Below are positions 29,477 to 39,792 of a stretch of 64,000 bases of DNA, one piece after another. Under the pieces are notes generated by a model, which was not told the DNA's origin, made no database searches, and saw only the letters and a program-made list of their open reading frames with translations. The number at the start of each line of letters is the position of its first letter. Within the stretch, counting starts at the first letter, position 1. The position numbers were made by a program, and so were the translations under genes. The stretch comes from Chloroflexota bacterium (lineage in GTDB: Bacteria; Chloroflexota; Limnocylindria; Limnocylindrales; CSP1-4), in contig JBHORA010000039.1 of assembly GCA_042408535.1 (NCBI GenBank), forward strand, positions 3,419 through 67,418, in the 5' to 3' direction.

Positions 29477-30457
29477 ATGCGCGCCAGTCGCCTCGTGGCG
29501 CTCCTCCTCCACCTCCAGAACCGCGGCCGGATGACGGCCGGGGAGCTCGCCGCGGCCCTCGAGGTGTCGCCGCGCACGATCTACCGCGACCTCGAGGCCC
29601 TGAGCGCGGCCGGCATCCCGATCTGGGCGGAACGCGGGCCGGGTGGCGGGATCCAGCTCGTCGAGGGGTATCGCACCCGGCTGACGGGGCTCACGGCGGA
29701 CGAAGCCGCAGCGGTCATGCTCGCTGGCCTGCCGGGACCGGCAGCCGAGCTCGGGCTCGGGACCGTCCTCGCGGCGGCCGAGCTCAAGGTTCTCGCCGCG
29801 CTGCCGCCCGAGCTCCGCGGGCGAGCAGCGCGCATGCGAGCCCGCTTCCACCTCGACGCGCCGGGCTGGTTCCGGGCCGCCGATGCCGTGCCGCACCTGG
29901 CCGGGCTCGCCGAGGCGACGTGGAACGACGAACGCCTCCGCATCCGGTACCGGCGCGACGACGAGGTCGTCGAGCGGACGGTGGAGCCGCTGGGCCTCGT
30001 CCTCAAAGCCGGGTCCTGGTACCTCGTCGCCCGGCGCGACGGGGTGTACCGCACGTACCGGGTGTCGAGGATCGTCGGTGTCGAGTCGACCGGCGAGCGC
30101 TTCGAGCGACCGTCCGACTTCGACCTGGCCACGTACTGGGCGCGGTCGACGGCCAGCCTCGAGGCGGGCCCGGAGGGCAGGCCGCCGTACCCGGTGACCC
30201 TCCGACTGACCGCTGGCGGTGCGGCCGCGCTCGTGGCGATCCTCGGGGAGGCGCGAGCGCGCGTCGCCCTGGACAGCGCCGGGTCCGCCGACGAGGCGGG
30301 CTGGCGAACCGTCGTCGTGGATCTCGAGAGCCCCGGTTGGGCGCACGAGGTCGCGGTCCGTCTGGCCGATCGAGCCGAGGTGCTCGCTCCCTCCGACCTG
30401 AGATTGCGGGTGGTCGAGACGGCTCGGGCGTTCGCCGCTCGGTACGCCGGGGGCTGA
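29477..30457 (+). CDS. WYL-domain transcriptional regulator (HTH-WYL-WCX, YafY-like)
   Basis: MRASRLVALLLHLQNRGRMTAGELAAALEVSPRTIYRDLEALSAAGIPI..; WYL core SWYLVARRDGVYRTYRVSRI. Confidence 0.85.
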   Translation: MRASRLVALLLHLQNRGRMTAGELAAALEVSPRTIYRDLEALSAAGIPIWAERGPGGGIQLVEGYRTRLTGLTADEAAAVMLAGLPGPAAELGLGTVLAAAELKVLAALPPELRGRAARMRARFHLDAPGWFRAADAVPHLAGLAEATWNDERLRIRYRRDDEVVERTVEPLGLVLKAGSWYLVARRDGVYRTYRVSRIVGVESTGERFERPSDFDLATYWARSTASLEAGPEGRPPYPVTLRLTAGGAAALVAILGEARARVALDSAGSADEAGWRTVVVDLESPGWAHEVAVRLADRAEVLAPSDLRLRVVETARAFAARYAGG

Positions 30458-30721
30458 TCGGGGCTGGACGAGGGCGCCTCACCGCGTCGTGAGCGCTCGT
30501 TGCGCCGGTCGACGGCGAGTCGCGCTCGTGCCCGCGTATCGCGGTCGGTGTTCCACCGACGGTCCTGCGCCGGCCCCATCGCTTCTCTCGGTCCGATCGC
30601 GCCGATCGCGCCGCGCCGGTCCCAGCCAGTCCCCGTCGCGGTCTCCGGGCCGAACGCGCGCCGACCGGGCCGCGTGGGTCACGGCCCGGTCCCATCGGGG
30701 CCCTCCGGCGCACCGCACGCC

Positions 30722-30828
30722 GCGCTGCGCCGGTCGCGATCCAGTCATTGCCACCCCTACGACCTCCTCGGACCCGACCGCGGCTCCTGCGCGCGGCGCT
30801 GCGCCGGTCGCGATCCAGTCATTGCCAC
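30722..30828. repeat. perfect 33-bp direct repeat (2 copies, 74 bp apart)
   Basis: gcgctgcgccggtcgcgatccagtcattgccac at 30722-30754 and 30796-30828, inside a 450-bp non-coding leader. Confidence 0.9.
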
Positions 30829-30910
30829 GGCCCTCCGGAGAAGCGCACGCCGAGCTTCTGTCCATTTGTCCCTCGTCAGCCTCGATGCCTCGGAGTATCG
30901 TTGCCGGATC

Positions 30911-31717
30911 ATGGATGAGCGACCGATCGCGGCGACCGAGACGACGAGCGGGTCGGCCGGGTCGAGGACGAGCCTCGCCCTTCGGCCCGAGACTCGCCAC
31001 TGGCTCCTCTCCCTCGCCCGAGCGGCTGTCGGCAGCGCGGCCGAGGCGTACCGGGACGGCCGGCTCGACGAGCTCGAGGAGCGGCTCGCGGGCTACGGGC
31101 CGGCGGGTGGGCAACCGCGCGAGGAGGCCGGTGGGGCAGCGGGCGCGGGGGCGTCGGGTGCGGGGGCGTCGGGTGCGGGGGCGTCGAGCGAGGTGGCTCG
31201 CGACCTCGTTCGGCCGGCGGCCGCCTTCGTGACCCTCACCGTCGGCGGCGAGCTGCGCGGTTGCATGGGCCGGCTCGACGCCGGGCGTCCTCTCTGGGAG
31301 AACGTCCGGGACGCTGCCATCGCTGCCGCGATCGGCGATCCGCGGTTCCCGCCGCTGGCGCCCGAGGAGGTGCCTCGGGTCAGGATCGAGGTTTCGATCC
31401 TCAGTCTGCTGACGGAGATCGCGGACGCCGCCGACTTCGACGCGGAGCGGCACGGCATCGTCGTCGAGGCCGCTGGCCGGCGGGCCCTCCTCCTGCCGAA
31501 GGTCGCTCGGGAGCAGGGTTGGGACGAGGCGGCGACCCTGGCCGCGGTGTGCCGCAAAGCCGGGCTGCCGCCCGAAGCATGGCGCTGGCCGGAGGCCCGC
31601 CTCTGGGTGTTCGAGGCGGAGGACTTCGGCGAGGCGGAGTGGTCGGCGGGTCCGGGCACCGCTGGGGCCGGGACGCGTTCCGCCGGGATCCACTCCGACA
31701 GCGGGGACGAGCGATGA
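30911..31717 (+). CDS. AMMECR1-domain protein
   Basis: AAFVTLTVGGELRGCMGRL...DPRFPPL...VRIEVSILS...GIVVEAAGRRALLLPKVA. Contains a GAGAS x3 insert. Confidence 0.85.
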   Translation: MDERPIAATETTSGSAGSRTSLALRPETRHWLLSLARAAVGSAAEAYRDGRLDELEERLAGYGPAGGQPREEAGGAAGAGASGAGASGAGASSEVARDLVRPAAAFVTLTVGGELRGCMGRLDAGRPLWENVRDAAIAAAIGDPRFPPLAPEEVPRVRIEVSILSLLTEIADAADFDAERHGIVVEAAGRRALLLPKVAREQGWDEAATLAAVCRKAGLPPEAWRWPEARLWVFEAEDFGEAEWSAGPGTAGAGTRSAGIHSDSGDER

Positions 31718-32010
31718 CCGCCTCGCGCCACGTCGTTCGCGACGTCGTCTTCCGCGACCGCTACGGCCTCCACCCTCGAGCCGCAATGCGGATCAGCCAG
31801 ACCGCGGCGCGGTTCGGGGCGCGGATGACCCTCGAAGACCTGACCGCCGGTTCCGCGCCGGTGGAGGTCCGGAGCATGCTCACGCTCGTCGGGGCTGCCA
31901 TCCGGGCCGGCGACCGGGTCCGGGTAGCAGCCGACGGCGAGGATGGCGAGGCCGCCGTCTCGGCGATCGCCGACCTCCTCGAAGGTGGTGTCTGCCACCC
32001 CGGCGGGTAA
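31714..32010 (+). CDS. HPr-like phosphocarrier protein
   Basis: ATGA overlap with the AMMECR1 stop. VVFRDRYGLHPRAAMRISQTAARF (His in the GLH context), RSMLTLVGAAIRAGDRVRVAADGEDGEAAVSAIADLL. Confidence 0.8.
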   Translation: MTASRHVVRDVVFRDRYGLHPRAAMRISQTAARFGARMTLEDLTAGSAPVEVRSMLTLVGAAIRAGDRVRVAADGEDGEAAVSAIADLLEGGVCHPGG

Positions 32011-32078
32011 CCGGCAATCTCGGGGTCAGGGGTTCGGATCCCGAGCGCCATGCGGCCTCCACGTCCACGCCCATCCGT

Positions 32079-32436
32079 CGCGGATGACACTCAGAGCGAA
32101 CAGTACGCGCTCCGTTCCGCCGCCGTGCTCTCGGATGACACCCAGGCCGAACAACACGAGAGGTTCGGCCGCCGCGAACCCCGTTTCTGTTCGCCCTGAG
32201 TGTCACTCGCCGCCGAACCGCGCCCCGACGCCCCGTTCTGTCCGCTCAGGCCGTCAGCCCGTGCGCTCGAGCCCGCCGAACCTGCGTTCTGTTCGGCGAC
32301 AGCGTCACAGCCCGCCAGGAGGACGGCCGCGAACCCCGTTCTGTTCGCCCTGCGTGTCACTCGCCGCCGAACCGCGCCCCGACGCCCCGTTCCGTCCGCT
32401 CAGGCCGTCACGTCCCGCCAGGCTGAGGGCCGAAGC
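32079..32436. repeat. array of seven degenerate repeat units, 51-52 bp period, two forward and five inverted
   Basis: Core copies start at 32085, 32136, 32187, 32238, 32289, 32341 and 32392. 32181-32284 is repeated almost exactly at 32335-32411. Confidence 0.85.
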
Positions 32437-32486
32437 CCCGCCCGACGCCTGACCCGGCACGCCGCGGCCGCCACCCCACGCGGCCG

Positions 32487-33902
32487 TCACCCGCGCCCGA
32501 CCCGGCGATACCGGCGGGCGACCCCCGCGAAGGCCGGCAGCCGGGCCAGGGCAGCCGACAGACGTCCCGGTCGGCCGTCCCGCCGCTCGACCGCGAGGAG
32601 GGCGTCGGCCGTCGAGCTGTCCGCCGGTCGGGCGTCAACGACGGCCACGTCGATCCTGACCCGGCCCGGGTCCGAAACCCCGAGACCGGCGATCTCCTCG
32701 GGGGACGGAGCATCCTCGAAGGCGAGCCGCACCTCCGCTTCGGCCCGCCAGTTCGGCCGCCGGAGGAGGATCGCCCGCCAGAGCCGCCCCACGGCCGGCG
32801 TCACCCGACCCTCTCCCGGCCGTGGTCGACTCGCCAGCGCCTCGCCGCGCGCCCAGCGGGCCGCCTGGTGGAGGAGCGCGTACTCGTCGAGGTCGGCGTA
32901 GTCGGCGAGCCGTTCGACCGGCGAGCCCTCCCCGAAGAGCGCCCGGATCGAAGGCTCGAAGACCTCGGCCAGGTCGAGATCGATGGCCCGCACCGTCCAA
33001 TGGAAGTAGACCTGCTGGTACATGAAAAGCCGCGCCGTGAGGAACATCTCGAGCGCCCCCAGGCCCGGCTCGTAGATCGTCAGGCCCCGGTCGGTGACGA
33101 AGGCGTAGCGCCGGAGCCGCTCGACGTCGACCGGTCCGATGGCGACTCCCGTCAGGTACGCGTCGCGTCGGACGTAGTCGAGGTTGTCGACCGTGAAGAC
33201 CCCAGAGAAGAGCGGCTGGAGCCAGCGGAGCCAGCGCGGCATCGACGGATCGGCGAGGGCGGGCTTGGCGATGAGGTAGGAGACCCAGCGCGGGTCGATC
33301 GCCTCGCCGGGCCCGAAGCGGTCCCGCTCCGGCATGACCCCCGGAGCCCGCCGCAGCCCGGCGATGAGAGGCCCCAGCTCCCGCTCGACGATGAGCTGGC
33401 TCAGGTCCTCGTGGCTGAGGCGCTTCCCGGGTGCGCGGCGCGGATCGGGGGGCGCCTCGAAGGCGGCGAGGACGTGGTCGTCGAAGAAGTGGGCGAAGGG
33501 GCCGTGGCCGACATCGTGGAGGAGCCCGGCGATCCGGAGCGTCTCGACGACGAGACCCTCCGAGGGGATGCTCGCGACCGGTTCGCCGGTGCCGAGCAAG
33601 GCCTCACGAAGCGAGGGGTAGAGGGCGCGCCCCCAGAGACCGGCTTCGTGCATGACGCCCAGGCCGTGGGTGAAGCGGCTGTGTTCGGCGGTCGGGAAGA
33701 CCCAGCGCGCGCTCTGGAGCTGGCTGATCCGGCGCAGCCGCTGGAGCCAGGCCGAATCGAGGAGGTCCTCTTCGGCGACGTCCTCCTCTGGCAGCTCGGC
33801 CCGCCGCGCCTCGGCCGGGCTGAGGCGCTTCGTCAGCTCGAGGTAGCCGTGGATCGGATCGCTGATGAGGTTGACGGCGGCGAACCGCGGATGGCGGCGC
33901 AT
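32487..33902 (-). CDS. HD-domain phosphohydrolase, SAMHD1/EF1143-like (putative dNTP triphosphohydrolase)
   Basis: DPIHGYLEL...RLRRISQLQ...EHSRFTHGLGVMH...AGLLHDVGHGPFAHFFD...VDNLDYVRRDAY. AAGGAG RBS inside the 7-nt gap after the upstream gene. Confidence 0.85.
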   Translation of the reverse strand: MRRHPRFAAVNLISDPIHGYLELTKRLSPAEARRAELPEEDVAEEDLLDSAWLQRLRRISQLQSARWVFPTAEHSRFTHGLGVMHEAGLWGRALYPSLREALLGTGEPVASIPSEGLVVETLRIAGLLHDVGHGPFAHFFDDHVLAAFEAPPDPRRAPGKRLSHEDLSQLIVERELGPLIAGLRRAPGVMPERDRFGPGEAIDPRWVSYLIAKPALADPSMPRWLRWLQPLFSGVFTVDNLDYVRRDAYLTGVAIGPVDVERLRRYAFVTDRGLTIYEPGLGALEMFLTARLFMYQQVYFHWTVRAIDLDLAEVFEPSIRALFGEGSPVERLADYADLDEYALLHQAARWARGEALASRPRPGEGRVTPAVGRLWRAILLRRPNWRAEAEVRLAFEDAPSPEEIAGLGVSDPGRVRIDVAVVDARPADSSTADALLAVERRDGRPGRLSAALARLPAFAGVARRYRRVGRG

Positions 33903-33909
33903 CCGCTCC

Positions 33910-34917
33910 TTACCCCTCGCCGTAGCGGGCCAGGGCGGCCTGGAGGGTCCGGGCGACGTCGGCCCGCAGCGCGGGCGGGGCGAGGACCTCGACGTCGGCT
34001 CCCCAGCCGAGGATCCAGAGCTTGATCTCGTGGGTCCCGGCCACCCGCGCCCGCCAGAGGAGCGAGCCGTCGGCGCCCTCTTCGACGACCTGGGTCGGAT
34101 GCCAGGTCGCCTCCTGGACCCGCGCCGCGACCATCGGCGAGAAGCGAAGGACGACCTCCACCTCGGGCTGGTCGCCGATGATGTCCCAGGCCCGCAGGAG
34201 CGTCCGCTGGAGGGCGTCGGCGTTCGGTGGCTCGAAGGTCTCCGGGCTGACCGAGAGCGCTTCGATCCGCTCCACCTTGAAGGTCCGGAGGGCGCCGCGG
34301 TCCTCGTCGTGGCCGATGAGGTAGAGGGCATGGGTCTGGAGCGAAGGCTCGAGGAGGTAGGGCCGGACCCGAGCCTCCCGTGGCTCTCGCTCGGCACCCT
34401 CGTAGCGGGCCGGGACGTAGCGGAAGGTGACCTTCCGTCGCTCCGCCCAGGCCCGGACGAGGTCGTGAACGTGGCGGTTGAAGCGTGGATCCGTTCGGCG
34501 GCTGGCGAGGACGGTGAGCGTCCGCTCGACATGTTCGCGAAGGGGGATCGGGAGGACCTCCTCGAGCTTCTGGAAGGCAGCCGCGAGCTCCGGGTCGTAC
34601 TTGTCGGCGTAGCGGGCCATGAGCCGCGCCGAGAGGACGACGGCCATCGCCTCGCCGAGGGTCAGATTCAGGGGCGGCAGGAAAGTCTCACCCTCGACGC
34701 CCCAGCGACCCTGCTCGTTCCAGACGGCGGCCCCGATCTCGGTCTCGAGAGCCCGAAGGTCGCGGTAGGCCGTCCGCCGAGAGACGCCGACCCGGCGGGC
34801 GATCTCGTCGATGGCGACGCCCCGCTCGCCGTGGGAGCGGAGGACCGAGAGGACGCGGTAGAAGCGGGCCAGGCGATCGCGTTTCCCGTTCGAGCCTCGG
34901 CCGTCGCCGTCGATCAT
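33910..34917 (-). CDS. WYL-domain transcriptional regulator
   Basis: GGAGGAG before the ATG (rc 34915-34917). RLARFYRVLSVLRSHGERGVAIDEIARRVGVSRRTAYRDLRALE; WYL core ALYLIGHDEDRGALRTFKVERI; C-terminal WCX-like. Confidence 0.85.
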   Translation of the reverse strand: MIDGDGRGSNGKRDRLARFYRVLSVLRSHGERGVAIDEIARRVGVSRRTAYRDLRALETEIGAAVWNEQGRWGVEGETFLPPLNLTLGEAMAVVLSARLMARYADKYDPELAAAFQKLEEVLPIPLREHVERTLTVLASRRTDPRFNRHVHDLVRAWAERRKVTFRYVPARYEGAEREPREARVRPYLLEPSLQTHALYLIGHDEDRGALRTFKVERIEALSVSPETFEPPNADALQRTLLRAWDIIGDQPEVEVVLRFSPMVAARVQEATWHPTQVVEEGADGSLLWRARVAGTHEIKLWILGWGADVEVLAPPALRADVARTLQAALARYGEG

Positions 34918-34939
34918 CGCTCCTCCGGGCTTGCCGTTC

Positions 34940-34954
34940 CGTCCGCGTCGGACG
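34940..34954. promoter_or_regulatory. palindrome CGTCCG-CGT-CGGACG upstream of the WYL-HD operon
   Basis: 6-bp arms, 23 nt upstream of the start codon at 34917. Confidence 0.3.
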
Positions 34955-35059
34955 TCATCGCCTTCATTCTGCCACCCGAGGGAGCGACGGAGGCACTGGC
35001 CACTGCAGCACCAGATCGTCGGGGCCGACCGCGGCCCGACGGCCACGACCTCGCCCACA

Positions 35060-36244
35060 TCACGGGGTCGGGCGGGCGACAGTCGCGTCCCGTCCCCGAG
35101 CGACCGCCTCGAGCTCGAGGCGGATGGTGGCCAAGAGACCCGACGGCGAGAGCTCGTATGCCTCGCCGTTCACCGTCGCCTCGACTCGGCCGACCTGCCC
35201 GTCGGCGAAGACCCAGTAGTCGAGCTCCCCGCGCCAGCGTCGGAGCGAGGCGTCGCCGACGAGAAGCCAGAGCGGCCAGACGGCGGACCGGAAGGTCGGC
35301 CCGTCGATGGCGATCCGGCAGTGCCGGGCCCGGGCCCCGCCGACGGTGGCGATGCCGAAGTCCTCGGCCGGGGTTCGGTTCCCCGGGGCGAGGGCCACCG
35401 CCACGATCTGGCGGTCGAGGTCGGCCCCCGCCACCTCCGCCGGGTCGACGCGGAACCAGCCGATCCGAGGCAGCGCCCGCCAGGCCTCGCTCCCGACCCG
35501 AGCGGCGCCGTACGTCCCCAACGCGATCGAGGTCGCCGCGTAGCCGCTCCATCGGAAGTCGTCCCCGACCCGGAGCCCGGCGATGTCGACCTCGCCGATC
35601 GGTCGGAGATCGACTTCGCCTGACAGGCGCAGGCTCAGGCGGGCGCTCGGGCTGGCGGCGAGATCGGCATGGCAGGCGGGCGGCTCGAGGGACGGATCCG
35701 TGGGACCGTACACAGAGCCCGGGACGGGGCGATCCCGAAGCGCGAGGTCGTTCGCCACCGCCGTCGCCGCGACGGCTGAAGCCGCGGTGATGGTGAGGGC
35801 GGCCCCGATGGCCGAGCCGACGACGAGACGTCGCCGCCTGCCGGCGCCCCAGCCCAGGATCCGCCGGGCGAGGCCGAAGCCCGCGAAGAGACTCGTCGCG
35901 GCGAGGGCAAGGAGCCACGGGTAGGCGGCCTCGACGGACGGGAGGAGGGTCTGCGGCCCGCCTCGGGCGAGGCGGAGGACGAGCCCGCCAATGGACGGAA
36001 CGAGGAGGAGCAGACCGAGGGTCCCGAGGGTGACGATGGACGGGAAGGCGAGGCGTCCGCGGGGGACCGGTGGCCAGCGCAGGCCGCTGGCAGCGATGGC
36101 GGTCGGCAGGCAGGCGGCGAGGCCGACGAGGAGGTCGATCGGGCCGCCGGGCCGGTAGCCGACGAGGACGAGGAGACCACTCGCCGCCCAGCCGCCGGTC
36201 AGGGCCGCCGCGAGAAGGCGGAGCTCGAACTGGCGAACGCGCAT
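35060..36244 (-). CDS. membrane protein with a C-terminal extracytoplasmic domain, unknown function
   Basis: About 5 N-terminal TM helices, then a soluble domain (..DFRWSGYAATSIALGTYGAARVGSEAWRAL..) of normal composition. Confidence 0.65.
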   Translation of the reverse strand: MRVRQFELRLLAAALTGGWAASGLLVLVGYRPGGPIDLLVGLAACLPTAIAASGLRWPPVPRGRLAFPSIVTLGTLGLLLLVPSIGGLVLRLARGGPQTLLPSVEAAYPWLLALAATSLFAGFGLARRILGWGAGRRRRLVVGSAIGAALTITAASAVAATAVANDLALRDRPVPGSVYGPTDPSLEPPACHADLAASPSARLSLRLSGEVDLRPIGEVDIAGLRVGDDFRWSGYAATSIALGTYGAARVGSEAWRALPRIGWFRVDPAEVAGADLDRQIVAVALAPGNRTPAEDFGIATVGGARARHCRIAIDGPTFRSAVWPLWLLVGDASLRRWRGELDYWVFADGQVGRVEATVNGEAYELSPSGLLATIRLELEAVARGRDATVARPTP

Positions 36245-36340: not shown

Positions 36341-37024
36341 TCAGTCGAGCCCCAGCACGAAGTCCGCGGCAGCGACGACGTGCGGATCGTGGGATGCAAC
36401 GAGGATGGCATGCCCCGCGTCGCGGAGCTCCCGGAGGAGCTGCACGATCTGATCTGCACTGGCTCGGTCGAGGCTCGCCGTCGGCTCGTCGATCAAGAGG
36501 AGTGGCGGATCACCGTTCAAGGCTCGGGCGATGGCGACACGCTGCTGTTCGCCAGCGGAGAGCTGGCTCGGGAAGTGATCCGCTCTTCCATCGAGACCCA
36601 CCCGTTTCAGGAGTTCCCGCACGCCAGCTGGATTGTTGCTCAGCGACCCATCGGCCCCCCTGGCGAGGGCGACGTTCTCCGCTGCGGTGAGCGACGGGAC
36701 GAGACCTCCGTGTTGGAACACGAAGCCGATGAAGCCTCGACGCAAGCGCTGGATCTCAGCCTCCGGGAGTCCCTCGATGGGCCTCGAACGCCACAGGACC
36801 CTCCCCTCCGTCGGCCGGAGGAAGCCGGCGCAGAGCAGGAGCAGCGATGTCTTGCCCGAGCCCGAGCGCCCGGCGACGCACGCCAACGTTCTCGATGAAA
36901 GGCTGAGCTCCACGTGGCGAAGGACTCGGATCACCACTCCGCGGCTCGGGCCCTGGTACTCCAGGCCGAGGTCATGCACCTCGAGGAGAGGTTCGGAACT
37001 CGCCACGAAATCGCCCTCGGTCAC
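36341..37024 (-). CDS. ABC transporter ATP-binding protein (MacB/LolD-like)
   Basis: [42 protein letters not shown] overlap with the permease stop. Confidence 0.9.
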
Positions 37025-39792
37025 GGCCGTTGCATCGGGTCGACGACGAGGCCGACGAGGAGCGGCCCGACGACTCCCAGGATTGGGCTGATGATGATCG
37101 TCGCGGCGACGATCAGGACGGGACTCGCGGCACCGATGGCCGTCGCGGTCGCACCGCTCATCGCCGCGCCGACAGCGGCCGCCGGCAGCGAGAGGACGGC
37201 TCCCGCCGCGAGTCGCGTTCCGAGAACCTGGGAGCGGGTCCAGCCCGCGGCGATGAGCGCGGCTGCCTCCCCCGCCCGAGCGCGAGCGTCCAGGCGCCAC
37301 ATGGCGGCGAGGGCCACGGCGTTGGCGGCGACGGCGGCGGCGAGGGTCAGCAGGAGGGACGGCTCGATGATCTGCAAGACGGCCGAGGCCAGCCTCGTTG
37401 GACCAGCCCTCAAACCTGCCTCTGCCACCACGCCACCGACGAGCGAGAGCGCCGATGCCGCCGCTCCAAGCCCGAGGACCAGGATGAGCGATCTCGTTAG
37501 ACTGGCGATGACGTTGCGGATCCCGAGCGTTACGGGCCCGCGGGCGGCCGGCAGACGGGGCGTCCGAGGGTTGACGTCGCCGGCCTGAACAAGAGCGCCG
37601 CTGGCCTCGATCCGCGTGTCGGTCAAGTGCAACCCCAGGGCGGGTGCCGCAACGACCCCGAAAGCCACCACGACGACGGCTGCCCCGGCAGGGATGGTGG
37701 TGCCCTGCGCGATCCACACGACGAGCCCGAGCCCGAGGACGATGATCCCCGAGATGAGCGCCTCCCCCATCACCCAGGCCCGGATGTTCCCGTTGCTCCA
37801 CCCCGACGCCAGGAGGATCGCGACTTCTCTTCGCCGGGTTGCGGCCCGTACCGCCTGGACCGCCGCGGTGGCGACCATGGCGGAGGCGAGGCCGATGACC
37901 AGGATCTCGAGCGCCCCACCGGTCAGGCCACGGAAGACGCGCTCGGCGGCGCCGAGGGTCGTCCACTCCTGGCGGATCCAGCCCAGGTCAGCAGCGCCGT
38001 TGTCGCGAACGATGTAGCCAGGGACGAACACGTCGACGGGCTGCGGCGAGGAACCTGCCACGATGTCGACGTCCAGTCCCATGGCGAGAATCGCCTCTGC
38101 CACGCGTTCGATCCGAGCGCGGCTCGCGGTGCTGAAGTCGGAGACGCCGGCCACACGGACGCGCACGGCATCGATGGGATGATCGCCGCGCAGGATGACC
38201 GCACCGCTGAGATCGGTAATCGCCAGCGGCGGGACCATGATCAGGCCCCGCGGGTTCAGGGTCGAAGACATCTCCACCAGCGGCCTCGGAGACGTCACCG
38301 GCGAAGGCGCCGCCGCGCCTCCCAGCCAAAGCGTGTGCGGCGGATCGTACGCGCCGAACGGCACGTAGGAGAGCGCTTCGGTCGGTATCTCCAGCTTCGA
38401 CAAATCGAACTCGCCGAGGGGGGCGAAGAAGAACGGTTGATCGCGTGGATCCTGGGCGGCGTAGCCCTCGGCCGCGACGAGTGGGACCTCCCGAAACTCC
38501 CGGTACGCAGCCTCACGGCCAGTCGTGATCTCCGGGGCGAGTGGATCGTTGGACGAGCGCTCCCCAGGAGCCTCACCGTCGGGTCCCACGACCCCGAGCG
38601 GTGCAATCTCAAAGGCGACAGTCGCGTCCGAGTCGGGCCTCCTTGGCACGATCCGATACTGCGGGCGCGTCGGGAGGCCCGCCGTGAAGTCGCGGAACTC
38701 ACTGAAGGCCGTGGCCGACTGCACGGTGGTGGTCCCCGGCCAGGGGAGGGCAGCTTTCGTCAACTGAAGGGGCCGTAAGGAGCCCGTCAGGTCCGTGTCG
38801 GCGACGCCGATGGGCGTGGTGCCGGGGCCGGCTTCGGCTAGGGCAGCCTTGAGGACGTCGGAGCCCGCCGCGCCCGGTGGGTAGGACGTCAGAGGGATGC
38901 CGACCCGATCGACTTCCAGCTGCAGCCTCAGCGAGGCATAGATCCGATCGCTCACGACGAGGGGGACGACCGGCCGGCCCAGGACCACCTCATTTTCCAC
39001 TCGAGAGGCAAAGCTCAGCACGGTTCGCGCAAACGCGTACTGGTCGGGAATCGACGCATAATCGAAGGTCCCAACGGTCCTCGAGGTCGGTGGGATCCCT
39101 GCGAGGGGCGCCAGGAACTCTGCCGTCGGCCCGAGGAGAGCCATCTCCGCGGCAGGATCCACGGCCATGAGGGGGCTCGCGATGGCCGGCAGGGGATGGT
39201 CGGAGCTGAGCTGGTAGACGATCGTGCCATCCGCCAGTTGACCGCTCGAGAGGCTCCCGAAATTCGTCGCCCATCGCTGGATGGCTTGAGGGCCCTCCCC
39301 CGGGCCGAGCAACAGGAGCCCGCTCTGGCGCTGTACGAGGAGATCGCGGAGACCGTCGTTCGTGGTGGCAGTCAGGCGGATGCGGTAGAGCGTCGGTTCG
39401 GCCGGAGGGGCTGGTAGATACACGACCGGGTTGCTCAGGACGTAGTGGACGAACCCGACGAAGCCGATCGGCGCGGCGATCTCGACCCCATCGATGCGGC
39501 GGATCGCCTCGAGCTGCTCGATGCTGATTCCGCCGGTGCCCGCGAAGCCGATGAAGTTCGGCTCGACGACCCCGTTCGTCCGTTCCAGGTCGAGATGTGT
39601 GCCCGGCGGTCGAACCAAGAGGTCGTACGCACCCCGCCAGTTGGCGCTGACCTCGCCCTGGATCCGTACGACGGTTCGCTCCGCGACCGAGGCCATCGAC
39701 GCTGTGACGAGAGCCACGACGAGCACCCCCAAGAGCACCGTCGGACTCCGGCGGGTCCGCTCCAGGGGGCCCGGGAGCGTTCTCTCCTGCAT
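37021..39792 (-). CDS. FtsX-family ABC permease with a large extracytoplasmic region (923 aa)
   Basis: N-terminal TM, a long periplasmic-type segment, and two FtsX-type 4-TM bundles at the centre and the C-terminus. Confidence 0.85.
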   Translation of the reverse strand: MQERTLPGPLERTRRSPTVLLGVLVVALVTASMASVAERTVVRIQGEVSANWRGAYDLLVRPPGTHLDLERTNGVVEPNFIGFAGTGGISIEQLEAIRRIDGVEIAAPIGFVGFVHYVLSNPVVYLPAPPAEPTLYRIRLTATTNDGLRDLLVQRQSGLLLLGPGEGPQAIQRWATNFGSLSSGQLADGTIVYQLSSDHPLPAIASPLMAVDPAAEMALLGPTAEFLAPLAGIPPTSRTVGTFDYASIPDQYAFARTVLSFASRVENEVVLGRPVVPLVVSDRIYASLRLQLEVDRVGIPLTSYPPGAAGSDVLKAALAEAGPGTTPIGVADTDLTGSLRPLQLTKAALPWPGTTTVQSATAFSEFRDFTAGLPTRPQYRIVPRRPDSDATVAFEIAPLGVVGPDGEAPGERSSNDPLAPEITTGREAAYREFREVPLVAAEGYAAQDPRDQPFFFAPLGEFDLSKLEIPTEALSYVPFGAYDPPHTLWLGGAAAPSPVTSPRPLVEMSSTLNPRGLIMVPPLAITDLSGAVILRGDHPIDAVRVRVAGVSDFSTASRARIERVAEAILAMGLDVDIVAGSSPQPVDVFVPGYIVRDNGAADLGWIRQEWTTLGAAERVFRGLTGGALEILVIGLASAMVATAAVQAVRAATRRREVAILLASGWSNGNIRAWVMGEALISGIIVLGLGLVVWIAQGTTIPAGAAVVVVAFGVVAAPALGLHLTDTRIEASGALVQAGDVNPRTPRLPAARGPVTLGIRNVIASLTRSLILVLGLGAAASALSLVGGVVAEAGLRAGPTRLASAVLQIIEPSLLLTLAAAVAANAVALAAMWRLDARARAGEAAALIAAGWTRSQVLGTRLAAGAVLSLPAAAVGAAMSGATATAIGAASPVLIVAATIIISPILGVVGPLLVGLVVDPMQRP

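Follow-up and report, generated by a model that had tools for sequence, protein, structure and literature searches.

The window analysed is a stretch of 64,000 nucleotides (nt) with a G+C content of 72%. It belongs to a metagenome-assembled genome of Chloroflexota, which comprises 2.9 Mb on 222 contigs; close homologues carry the label Candidatus Limnocylindrales. Two adjacent genes on its reverse strand are the subject of this report. The upstream one (33910-34917; ATG at 34917-34915, TAA at 33912-33910) encodes a transcription factor of 335 amino acids (aa) with helix-turn-helix (HTH), WYL and WCX domains. The downstream one (32487-33902; ATG at 33902-33900, TGA at 32489-32487) encodes an HD phosphohydrolase of 471 aa, of the SAMHD1/EF1143 type, which is a predicted deoxynucleoside triphosphate (dNTP) triphosphohydrolase, or dNTPase. 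They are referred to below as the WYL gene and the HD gene. A prediction made earlier from the bare sequence had named them as a WYL regulator and a SAMHD1-like HD enzyme. Both identities are correct according to the Pfam assignments (HTH_11, WYL and WCX for the former, HD and HD_assoc_2 for the latter), and the motifs it had cited, HGLGV, LLHDVGHGPFAH and DYVRRD, are all found in the HD translation.

The stop codon of the WYL gene and the start codon of the HD gene are separated by a 7-nt spacer (33909-33903). The junction (33903-33911, reverse strand) reads TAAGGAGCGGATG, in exact agreement with the original prediction, which had placed a ribosome-binding site within the gap. The Shine-Dalgarno sequence of the HD gene, AAGGAG, occupies positions 33911-33906 and begins with the final two bases of the WYL stop codon; the HD gene is translationally coupled to the WYL gene. 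The latter has a Shine-Dalgarno sequence of its own, GGAGGAG, at 34920-34926 (reverse strand). A scan for sigma-70 consensus promoters from 32000 to 35300 returned zero sites, hence none within the pair; such a scan is weak in DNA of 72% G+C, and the -10-like element found upstream of the WYL gene, described below, was also left unscored by it. The only terminator-like hairpins detected by the same scan lie about 300 nt past the HD stop codon, within a repeat array. The two genes sit behind one promoter-like element, with no space for a second promoter.

Conservation of the gene pair

The HD gene is present in single copy in 39 of the 41 Limnocylindrales genomes, including a family with genomes of only 1.0-1.4 Mb. 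Its product is 91-92% identical within the genus, 66-81% within the family and 64-66% across the order. Of 31 informative loci, 29 have a WYL gene upstream of it in the same orientation, so that the two genes, whose adjacency in other genomes had been proposed as a check on the functional link, are conserved neighbours inside Limnocylindrales. In about 17 loci the distance between them lies between -4 and +24 nt; within the streamlined genus, they overlap by 4 nt in three loci out of four, and are 2 nt apart in the fourth. The 1.0-1.4-Mb genomes have a single WYL gene, the one adjacent to HD. Pairwise divergence in one protein correlates with that in the other (r = 0.72), a value reached in 0 of 2000 permutations. 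The genes located upstream and downstream of the pair vary between genera, while the pair stays together. Adjacency that survives both the replacement of the flanks and genome reduction is more than would be expected of unrelated neighbours. The pair is best read as a chromosomal operon passed on vertically within the order Limnocylindrales (Chloroflexota).

Homologues of the HD gene from other lineages were surveyed on flanks of 1.5-3 kb, by using the best 80 of 584 genome matches. No WYL-HD pair was found at the 14 HD orthologue loci from other Chloroflexota families, at the 15 loci from Actinomycetota, or at about 68 loci from Nitrospirota, Planctomycetota, Dormibacterota, Methylomirabilota, Thermoleophilia, Deltaproteobacteria, Verrucomicrobia and archaea, one of which (L095) shows a weak WYL match on the opposite strand. 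WYL genes are present elsewhere in four of the sampled genomes of these outside groups. The pairing is absent from all of the approximately 97 outside HD-homologue loci sampled and, on this sampling, is confined to one order. No neighbour of the HD homologues is conserved across the sampled phyla; their neighbours are varied housekeeping genes, including ThiL/DUF2062 in Nitrospira.

Some single contexts from this survey are reported here. The HD homologue directly follows a thymidylate kinase gene in a Nitrosopumilales archaeon (L126:2359-2970), and lies 220 nt downstream of a guanylate kinase gene in a deltaproteobacterium (L091:2089-2760), contexts which fit a role of the HD family in nucleotide metabolism. 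In a locus from Planctomycetota (L100:1212-2807), a gene for an ATPase resembling the terminase large subunit (PF03354, 3.9e-07), which may be a prophage remnant, is located directly upstream of the HD homologue.

Additional genes are associated with the pair in parts of the order. In about one third of the Limnocylindrales genomes (L007-L010, L015, L021, L053-L057), WYL and HD are separated by a gene in the same orientation for a secreted CAP-domain protein (PF00188) of 263-324 aa. A membrane protein of 394 aa, recognized by its hydropathy, is encoded directly 5' of WYL in 15 family f1 loci; in the window its gene is located at 35060-36244 (reverse strand). It contains about 4-5 hydrophobic segments within the N-terminal 170 aa or so, followed by a non-hydrophobic C-terminal domain of about 220 aa, presumed to be extracytoplasmic, and has no Pfam or PADLOC match. 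Since this gene keeps its place next to WYL throughout family f1 (as in L118, L061, L059 and L055), and in some loci leaves little or no gap, membrane protein, WYL and HD genes appear to form a three-gene unit in family f1, of which the membrane-protein gene would be a facultative first member. It is absent from family f2, where a different gene is found upstream of WYL; as read from its translated 3' end, this gene may encode a glutamine-amidotransferase-like protein.

A second regulator with HTH, WYL and WCX domains (326 aa; 29477-30457, forward strand), about 30% identical to the HD-linked one, is also encoded in the window. It is followed by a gene for an AMMECR1-domain protein, and the two (29477-31717, forward strand) run towards the WYL-HD operon in convergent orientation. 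The AMMECR1 gene and the second WYL gene, downstream of HD, are common only to the genus (L003), and adjoin HD nowhere else in the order. A partnership of the PafB/PafC kind between the two regulators was considered and rejected, given their 30% identity, the restriction of the second gene to the genus and the single WYL gene of the streamlined genomes.

Features of the two proteins

The HD and HD_assoc_2 domains are both recognized by Pfam in the HD protein, the former with a low score (26.9 bits). When its single sequence was searched against PDB sequences, the matches were 2hek (Aquifex), 2q14 (Bacteroides), EF1143 (2o6i) and SAMHD1. A profile built from 10 sequences gave E-values of 9e-43 for 2hek, 6e-37 for 2q14, 1e-32 for EF1143 (2o6i) and 4e-28 for SAMHD1, with alignments extending through the C-terminal lobe. 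An AlphaFold2 model was obtained by using 54 homologues, with a mean predicted local distance difference test (pLDDT) of 94.9 and a predicted template modelling (TM) score (pTM) of 0.94. Compared to PDB structures by Foldseek, the model matched EF1143 and the catalytic cores of SAMHD1 with TM values of 0.62-0.67 over about 500 columns (E around 1e-17).

Residues H74, R76, H79, H129, D130, H133, H138, H164 and E165 are invariant in the 54 bacterial and archaeal homologues, and so are D239, D242, R246, D247, Y299 and H301. According to the profile alignment, H79, H129-D130 and D239 are equivalent to H167, H206-D207 and D311, the metal ligands of SAMHD1. Residues H133, H138 and H164 correspond to the catalytic histidines H210, H215 and H233. 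The residues R76, Q61/L62, Y243, D247, R291 and Y299 correspond to R164, Q149/L150, Y315, D319, R366 and Y374, among which R164, Y315, D319, R366 and Y374 contact the substrate. All these catalytic and substrate equivalents are conserved, with one clear departure among the mapped positions, an asparagine (N240) where SAMHD1 has K312. The allosteric equivalents that were mapped are conserved as well. D49, Q54 and R57 match the guanine-specific site residues D137, Q142 and R145, and V68/F69 and H301/R302 match V156/F157 and H376/K377, which are some of the residues of the second allosteric site.

The HD protein is a bona fide member, over its full length, of the SAMHD1/EF1143 structural family, with intact active-site residues. 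As judged from these residues, it would most likely act as a nucleotide-activated dNTP triphosphohydrolase, converting dNTPs to deoxynucleosides and triphosphate. It shares with human SAMHD1 and with EF1143 of Enterococcus faecalis the HD core and the C-terminal lobe, the H...HD...D metal site, the catalytic histidines and the mapped equivalents of guanine allosteric-site residues, but is only about 21-22% identical to them. It differs from SAMHD1 in the lack of a SAM domain and in the N240 substitution, and from both enzymes in a Limnocylindrales-specific insertion of 12 residues (approximately residues 148-159). Its gene is in an operon with a WYL regulator, whereas no such arrangement was found described for either enzyme.

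In the WYL protein, Pfam identifies HTH_11 (residues 21-73, 6.7e-08), WYL (150-222, 1.8e-12) and WCX (252-329, 4.7e-22). The nearest solved relatives are the structures of DriD from Caulobacter (8tp8, 9pfq, 7u02, 7tzv), with PafBC next, both aligning along the entire chain. DriD 8tp8 was matched among PDB sequences at 9e-13, in an alignment spanning residues 7-328 with 51 bits. At E-values up to 0.01, no BrxR or CapW chains were present among the PDB matches. Entries for both proteins are present in the PDB. The only PADLOC models matched were those of CRISPR-associated WYL proteins, which are generic WYL-domain matches.

The residues by which DriD contacts single-stranded DNA (ssDNA) have been listed (PMC9186387), and their equivalents were followed in 20 orthologues of the WYL protein. 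The equivalents of DriD Y192, R204 and W206, namely Y199, R211 and F213, are kept in all 20. K214, in the place of R207, is lysine or arginine in 20 of 20, R180 (DriD R176) is kept in 19 and Y172 (DriD Y168) in 14. R217 is invariant in the orthologues, too. The WYL protein thus retains most of the DriD contact residues, and for this reason an ssDNA-type ligand is plausible. The damage-inducible, nucleic-acid-sensing regulator of the original prediction is accordingly judged plausible in the form of an ssDNA sensor, being closest to DriD and PafBC and having kept most of the DriD contacts.

The architecture is that of the class A HTH-WYL-WCX factors, to which DriD, PafBC and SiwR belong. DriD and actinobacterial PafBC, the best solved relatives by sequence, are activated by ssDNA and govern SOS-independent responses to DNA damage, and LexA and RecA coexist with the WYL factor both in their genomes and in the one analysed. 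Differences are found in the low overall similarity (a full-length alignment, yet with 51 bits and E around 1e-12), in that no DriD-like or PafBC-like box and no regulon were found here, and in the genetic arrangement, since the WYL gene is coupled to an enzyme gene, whereas DriD stands alone and PafBC is a pafB-pafC pair. The closest functional analogy is SiwR of Mycobacterium smegmatis, a single WYL factor exerting local control, which activates adjacent genes under genotoxic stress and has ssDNA as its ligand (PMC10693628). The SiwR gene is divergent from its DinB-like cargo, with an imperfect palindrome of 19 bp in the interval between them as the binding site of the protein (PMC10693628); the WYL gene, unlike it, is the first gene of a presumed shared transcript, and its cargo is a predicted dNTPase.

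The promoter region

An extended -10-like element, TGGCAGAAT (34966-34974, reverse strand), precedes the WYL ATG by about 48 nt and is likely the promoter of the operon. The corresponding motif, TGGCA[CG]A[AG]T, is the sole conserved block preceding WYL both in genus g1 and in the streamlined genus. In the latter it lies only 7 nt before the WYL ATG, which suggests leaderless mRNA; the motif may thus represent the extended -10 element of transcripts that are often leaderless in this lineage. In the genome analysed, at least five other genes also carry it, 6-10 nt before their start codons (ATG, and GTG in one case), and it is for this reason regarded as a general promoter element rather than a WYL operator. 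Sites of the form (G)TGGCA[CT]AAT located 5' of start codons are found, for example, at C36:11908, C67:5099, C109:6995, C190:4301 and C9:18397. Its assignment as a WYL box or as a sigma-54 -24 element was discarded: it occurs 6-10 nt before the starts of unrelated genes and 7 nt before the WYL gene of the streamlined genus, a position which fits the extended -10 of leaderless mRNAs, and the -12 GC is not kept.

The palindrome CGTCCG-CGT-CGGACG, which had been proposed as a candidate operator, is indeed found at 34940-34954, within the presumed 5' untranslated region, between the -10-like element and the ribosome-binding site. Its role as an operator was rejected. Perfect inverted repeats with arms of 6 nt and loops of 0-7 nt occur in the window about once per 142 bp, and at least one of them is present in 46% of the 142-bp tiles; the frequency is therefore that of chance. 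Moreover, the left arm is lost in L003, a relative with proteins 92% identical. LexA control was rejected as well, as the WYL promoter contains no LexA-like GAAC-N4-GTTC sequence. The count of such sites over the window is near chance; a perfect one is located at 32278-32289, in the intergenic repeat array downstream of HD. No motif common to the WYL promoter and the upstream regions of recA, such as might mark a regulon of the PafBC/DriD type, was seen.

Interpretation of the pair

These features may be assembled into the following picture, to which we would give an even chance of being right as a whole: an operon that ties the level of a dNTPase to ssDNA or replication stress. One transcript, with its start about 40 nt 5' of the WYL start codon, would carry both genes, with the HD gene translated by coupling to WYL. 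The regulator would be a homodimer-type factor of the DriD, PafBC and SiwR kind, and its dimer would bind ssDNA arising from replication stress or DNA damage, phage replication being a further source. Acting on its own promoter, it would cause regulator and dNTPase to rise together, and the dNTP pool would be lowered or rebalanced until the stress is over. The mechanism is modelled on DriD, PafBC and SiwR, and it is by this analogy that we infer the ligand, the sign of regulation and the autoregulation, as we infer the enzyme activity from its residues. As a tentative proposal, which may well be wrong, the pair would act as an ssDNA-gated throttle of the dNTP pool: a DriD/PafBC-like sensor would directly set the level of the only SAMHD1-type dNTPase of the cell when replication stalls or DNA is damaged.

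Several observations weigh against this picture. Two of the DriD contact residues are lost in the WYL protein, where A182 and I247 replace R178 and Y240. The closest solved homologues of the HD protein, 2hek and 2q14, have no assigned activity, so that the case for a dNTPase is drawn from the residues. Upstream of the WYL gene, nothing is conserved across genera except the -10-like element, and no operator was found. LexA and RecA are both present in the genome, and a WYL damage circuit would therefore be an additional one, not the sole one. Tight coupling is not obligatory, since the secreted-protein gene with the CAP domain stands between WYL and HD in 11 loci, and two others (L016 and L018) have no WYL gene within 1.5 kb. 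As the pairing is confined to one order, descent alone is not fully separable from functional linkage.

The two genes might be neighbours without any private link. The WYL protein would then be a global, SOS-independent damage regulator, analogous to PafBC or DriD, with its targets elsewhere, and the HD gene would be expressed constitutively by read-through. Its being the sole WYL factor of the streamlined genomes and its resemblance to DriD and PafBC, which control regulons in addition to their own promoters, would agree with such a role, and so would the general nature of the -10-like motif. The search against recA upstream regions, however, gave no shared motif, no candidate regulon could be defined, and the adjacency outlasts flank change and genome reduction, with stop and start usually overlapping or nearly so; this explanation is considered rather unlikely. 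Another possibility concerns the enzyme, which could be a different COG1078 phosphohydrolase or nuclease, whose substrate might be, for example, nucleic acid or nucleotides that are modified or damaged, so that WYL would control repair or sanitation. The unassigned function of 2hek and 2q14, the asparagine at the K312 position and the low Pfam HD score are in its favour. It is nevertheless improbable, in view of the full-length likeness, in fold and in sequence, to SAMHD1 and EF1143, which are biochemically proven dNTPases, of the conserved substrate and allosteric equivalents, and of the thymidylate (dTMP) and guanylate (GMP) kinase genes found next to HD in other lineages.

Dedicated anti-phage nucleotide depletion was the core of the original prediction. 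In such a scheme the WYL protein would repress the dNTPase, just as BrxR and CapW repress their own systems, and release it upon infection, starving phage DNA synthesis. dNTPases of the SAMHD1 and Dgt types are able to restrict viruses, and the WYL protein does match the CRISPR-associated models of PADLOC, generic as these are. WYL regulators also head BREX and CBASS operons (PMC10693628). The pair resembles the latter, headed by BrxR or CapW, in having a WYL regulator as the first gene, and resembles the anti-phage dGTPase and dCTP-deaminase depletion systems in the idea of an effector that destroys dNTPs. The downstream gene, however, is a core HD enzyme to which no defence model corresponds, and no BrxR or CapW chain is found among the PDB matches with E up to 0.01. 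Against the dGTPase model of PADLOC, the HD protein reaches only E = 0.0058 and 14 bits, in an alignment of residues 71-138 that covers 48 of the 395 positions of the model, which is not a significant match, and against the dGTPase models of NCBIfam it scores 17.7-19.3 bits, with cut-offs of 405-439. No gene of the Dgt type (PF13286) was found in ten genomes of the order, while the control genomes were detected; HD is therefore the only candidate dNTPase of the SAMHD1/Dgt superfamily there. It is a core gene rather than an accessory one, tracks the relationships of the species and is kept in genomes of 1.1 Mb. The locus carries no island signature: the G+C content is flat across it, and the only tRNA gene is 21 kb away. 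The neighbours are genes for an ABC ATPase and an FtsX permease, the membrane protein, AMMECR1, a LysR regulator and the glyoxylate shunt, with no defence system recognizable among them, PADLOC having given only generic ABC-ATPase and WYL matches. No recurrence of the pair was seen in the other lineages sampled.

The compact anti-phage module is, on these grounds, not upheld. A dedicated mobile anti-phage system is unlikely, because HD is a single-copy core gene, the sole one of its type, without a dGTPase match, in a region of flat G+C and without defence neighbours. A constitutive or stress-induced dNTPase could restrict phages incidentally. If the operon ties dNTPase level to replication stress, the locus is to be read as a housekeeping stress circuit, not as a mobile defence system.

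A WYL factor adjoining its cargo genes is a known design, as in SiwR, BrxR and CapW. Full-text literature searches returned no paper in which a WYL domain is connected with either a dNTPase or a SAMHD1-like phosphohydrolase; a SAMHD1-type dNTPase as WYL cargo, in a core operon of a whole order, is undescribed in the literature searched. WYL regulators are emerging as bacterial sensors of ssDNA, and the adjustment of dNTP pools after damage is far less understood in bacteria than in eukaryotes. The locus couples a WYL sensor with a SAMHD1-type enzyme throughout an order that is abundant in soil and fresh water and is uncultured, and the link survives genome streamlining; it offers a simple two-gene system for probing ssDNA sensing in relation to dNTP pools. 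An ssDNA-gated throttle, if real, would parallel in bacteria the connection of SAMHD1 with replication stress, kept by selection even in freshwater genomes of 1.1 Mb as their only WYL circuit, and could incidentally blunt phage replication. The case also calls for caution: a WYL gene plus a dNTPase gene resembles a defence module, yet behaves here as a core chromosomal operon, and the finding is lineage-restricted and, on present evidence, housekeeping.

Among the flanking genes, those for the ABC ATPase and for the FtsX-type permease (923 aa, MacB-like) are located at 36341-39792 on the reverse strand, directly upstream of the membrane-protein gene and in the same orientation; the PADLOC matches of this pair (mad3, AriA) are generic for ABC ATPases.

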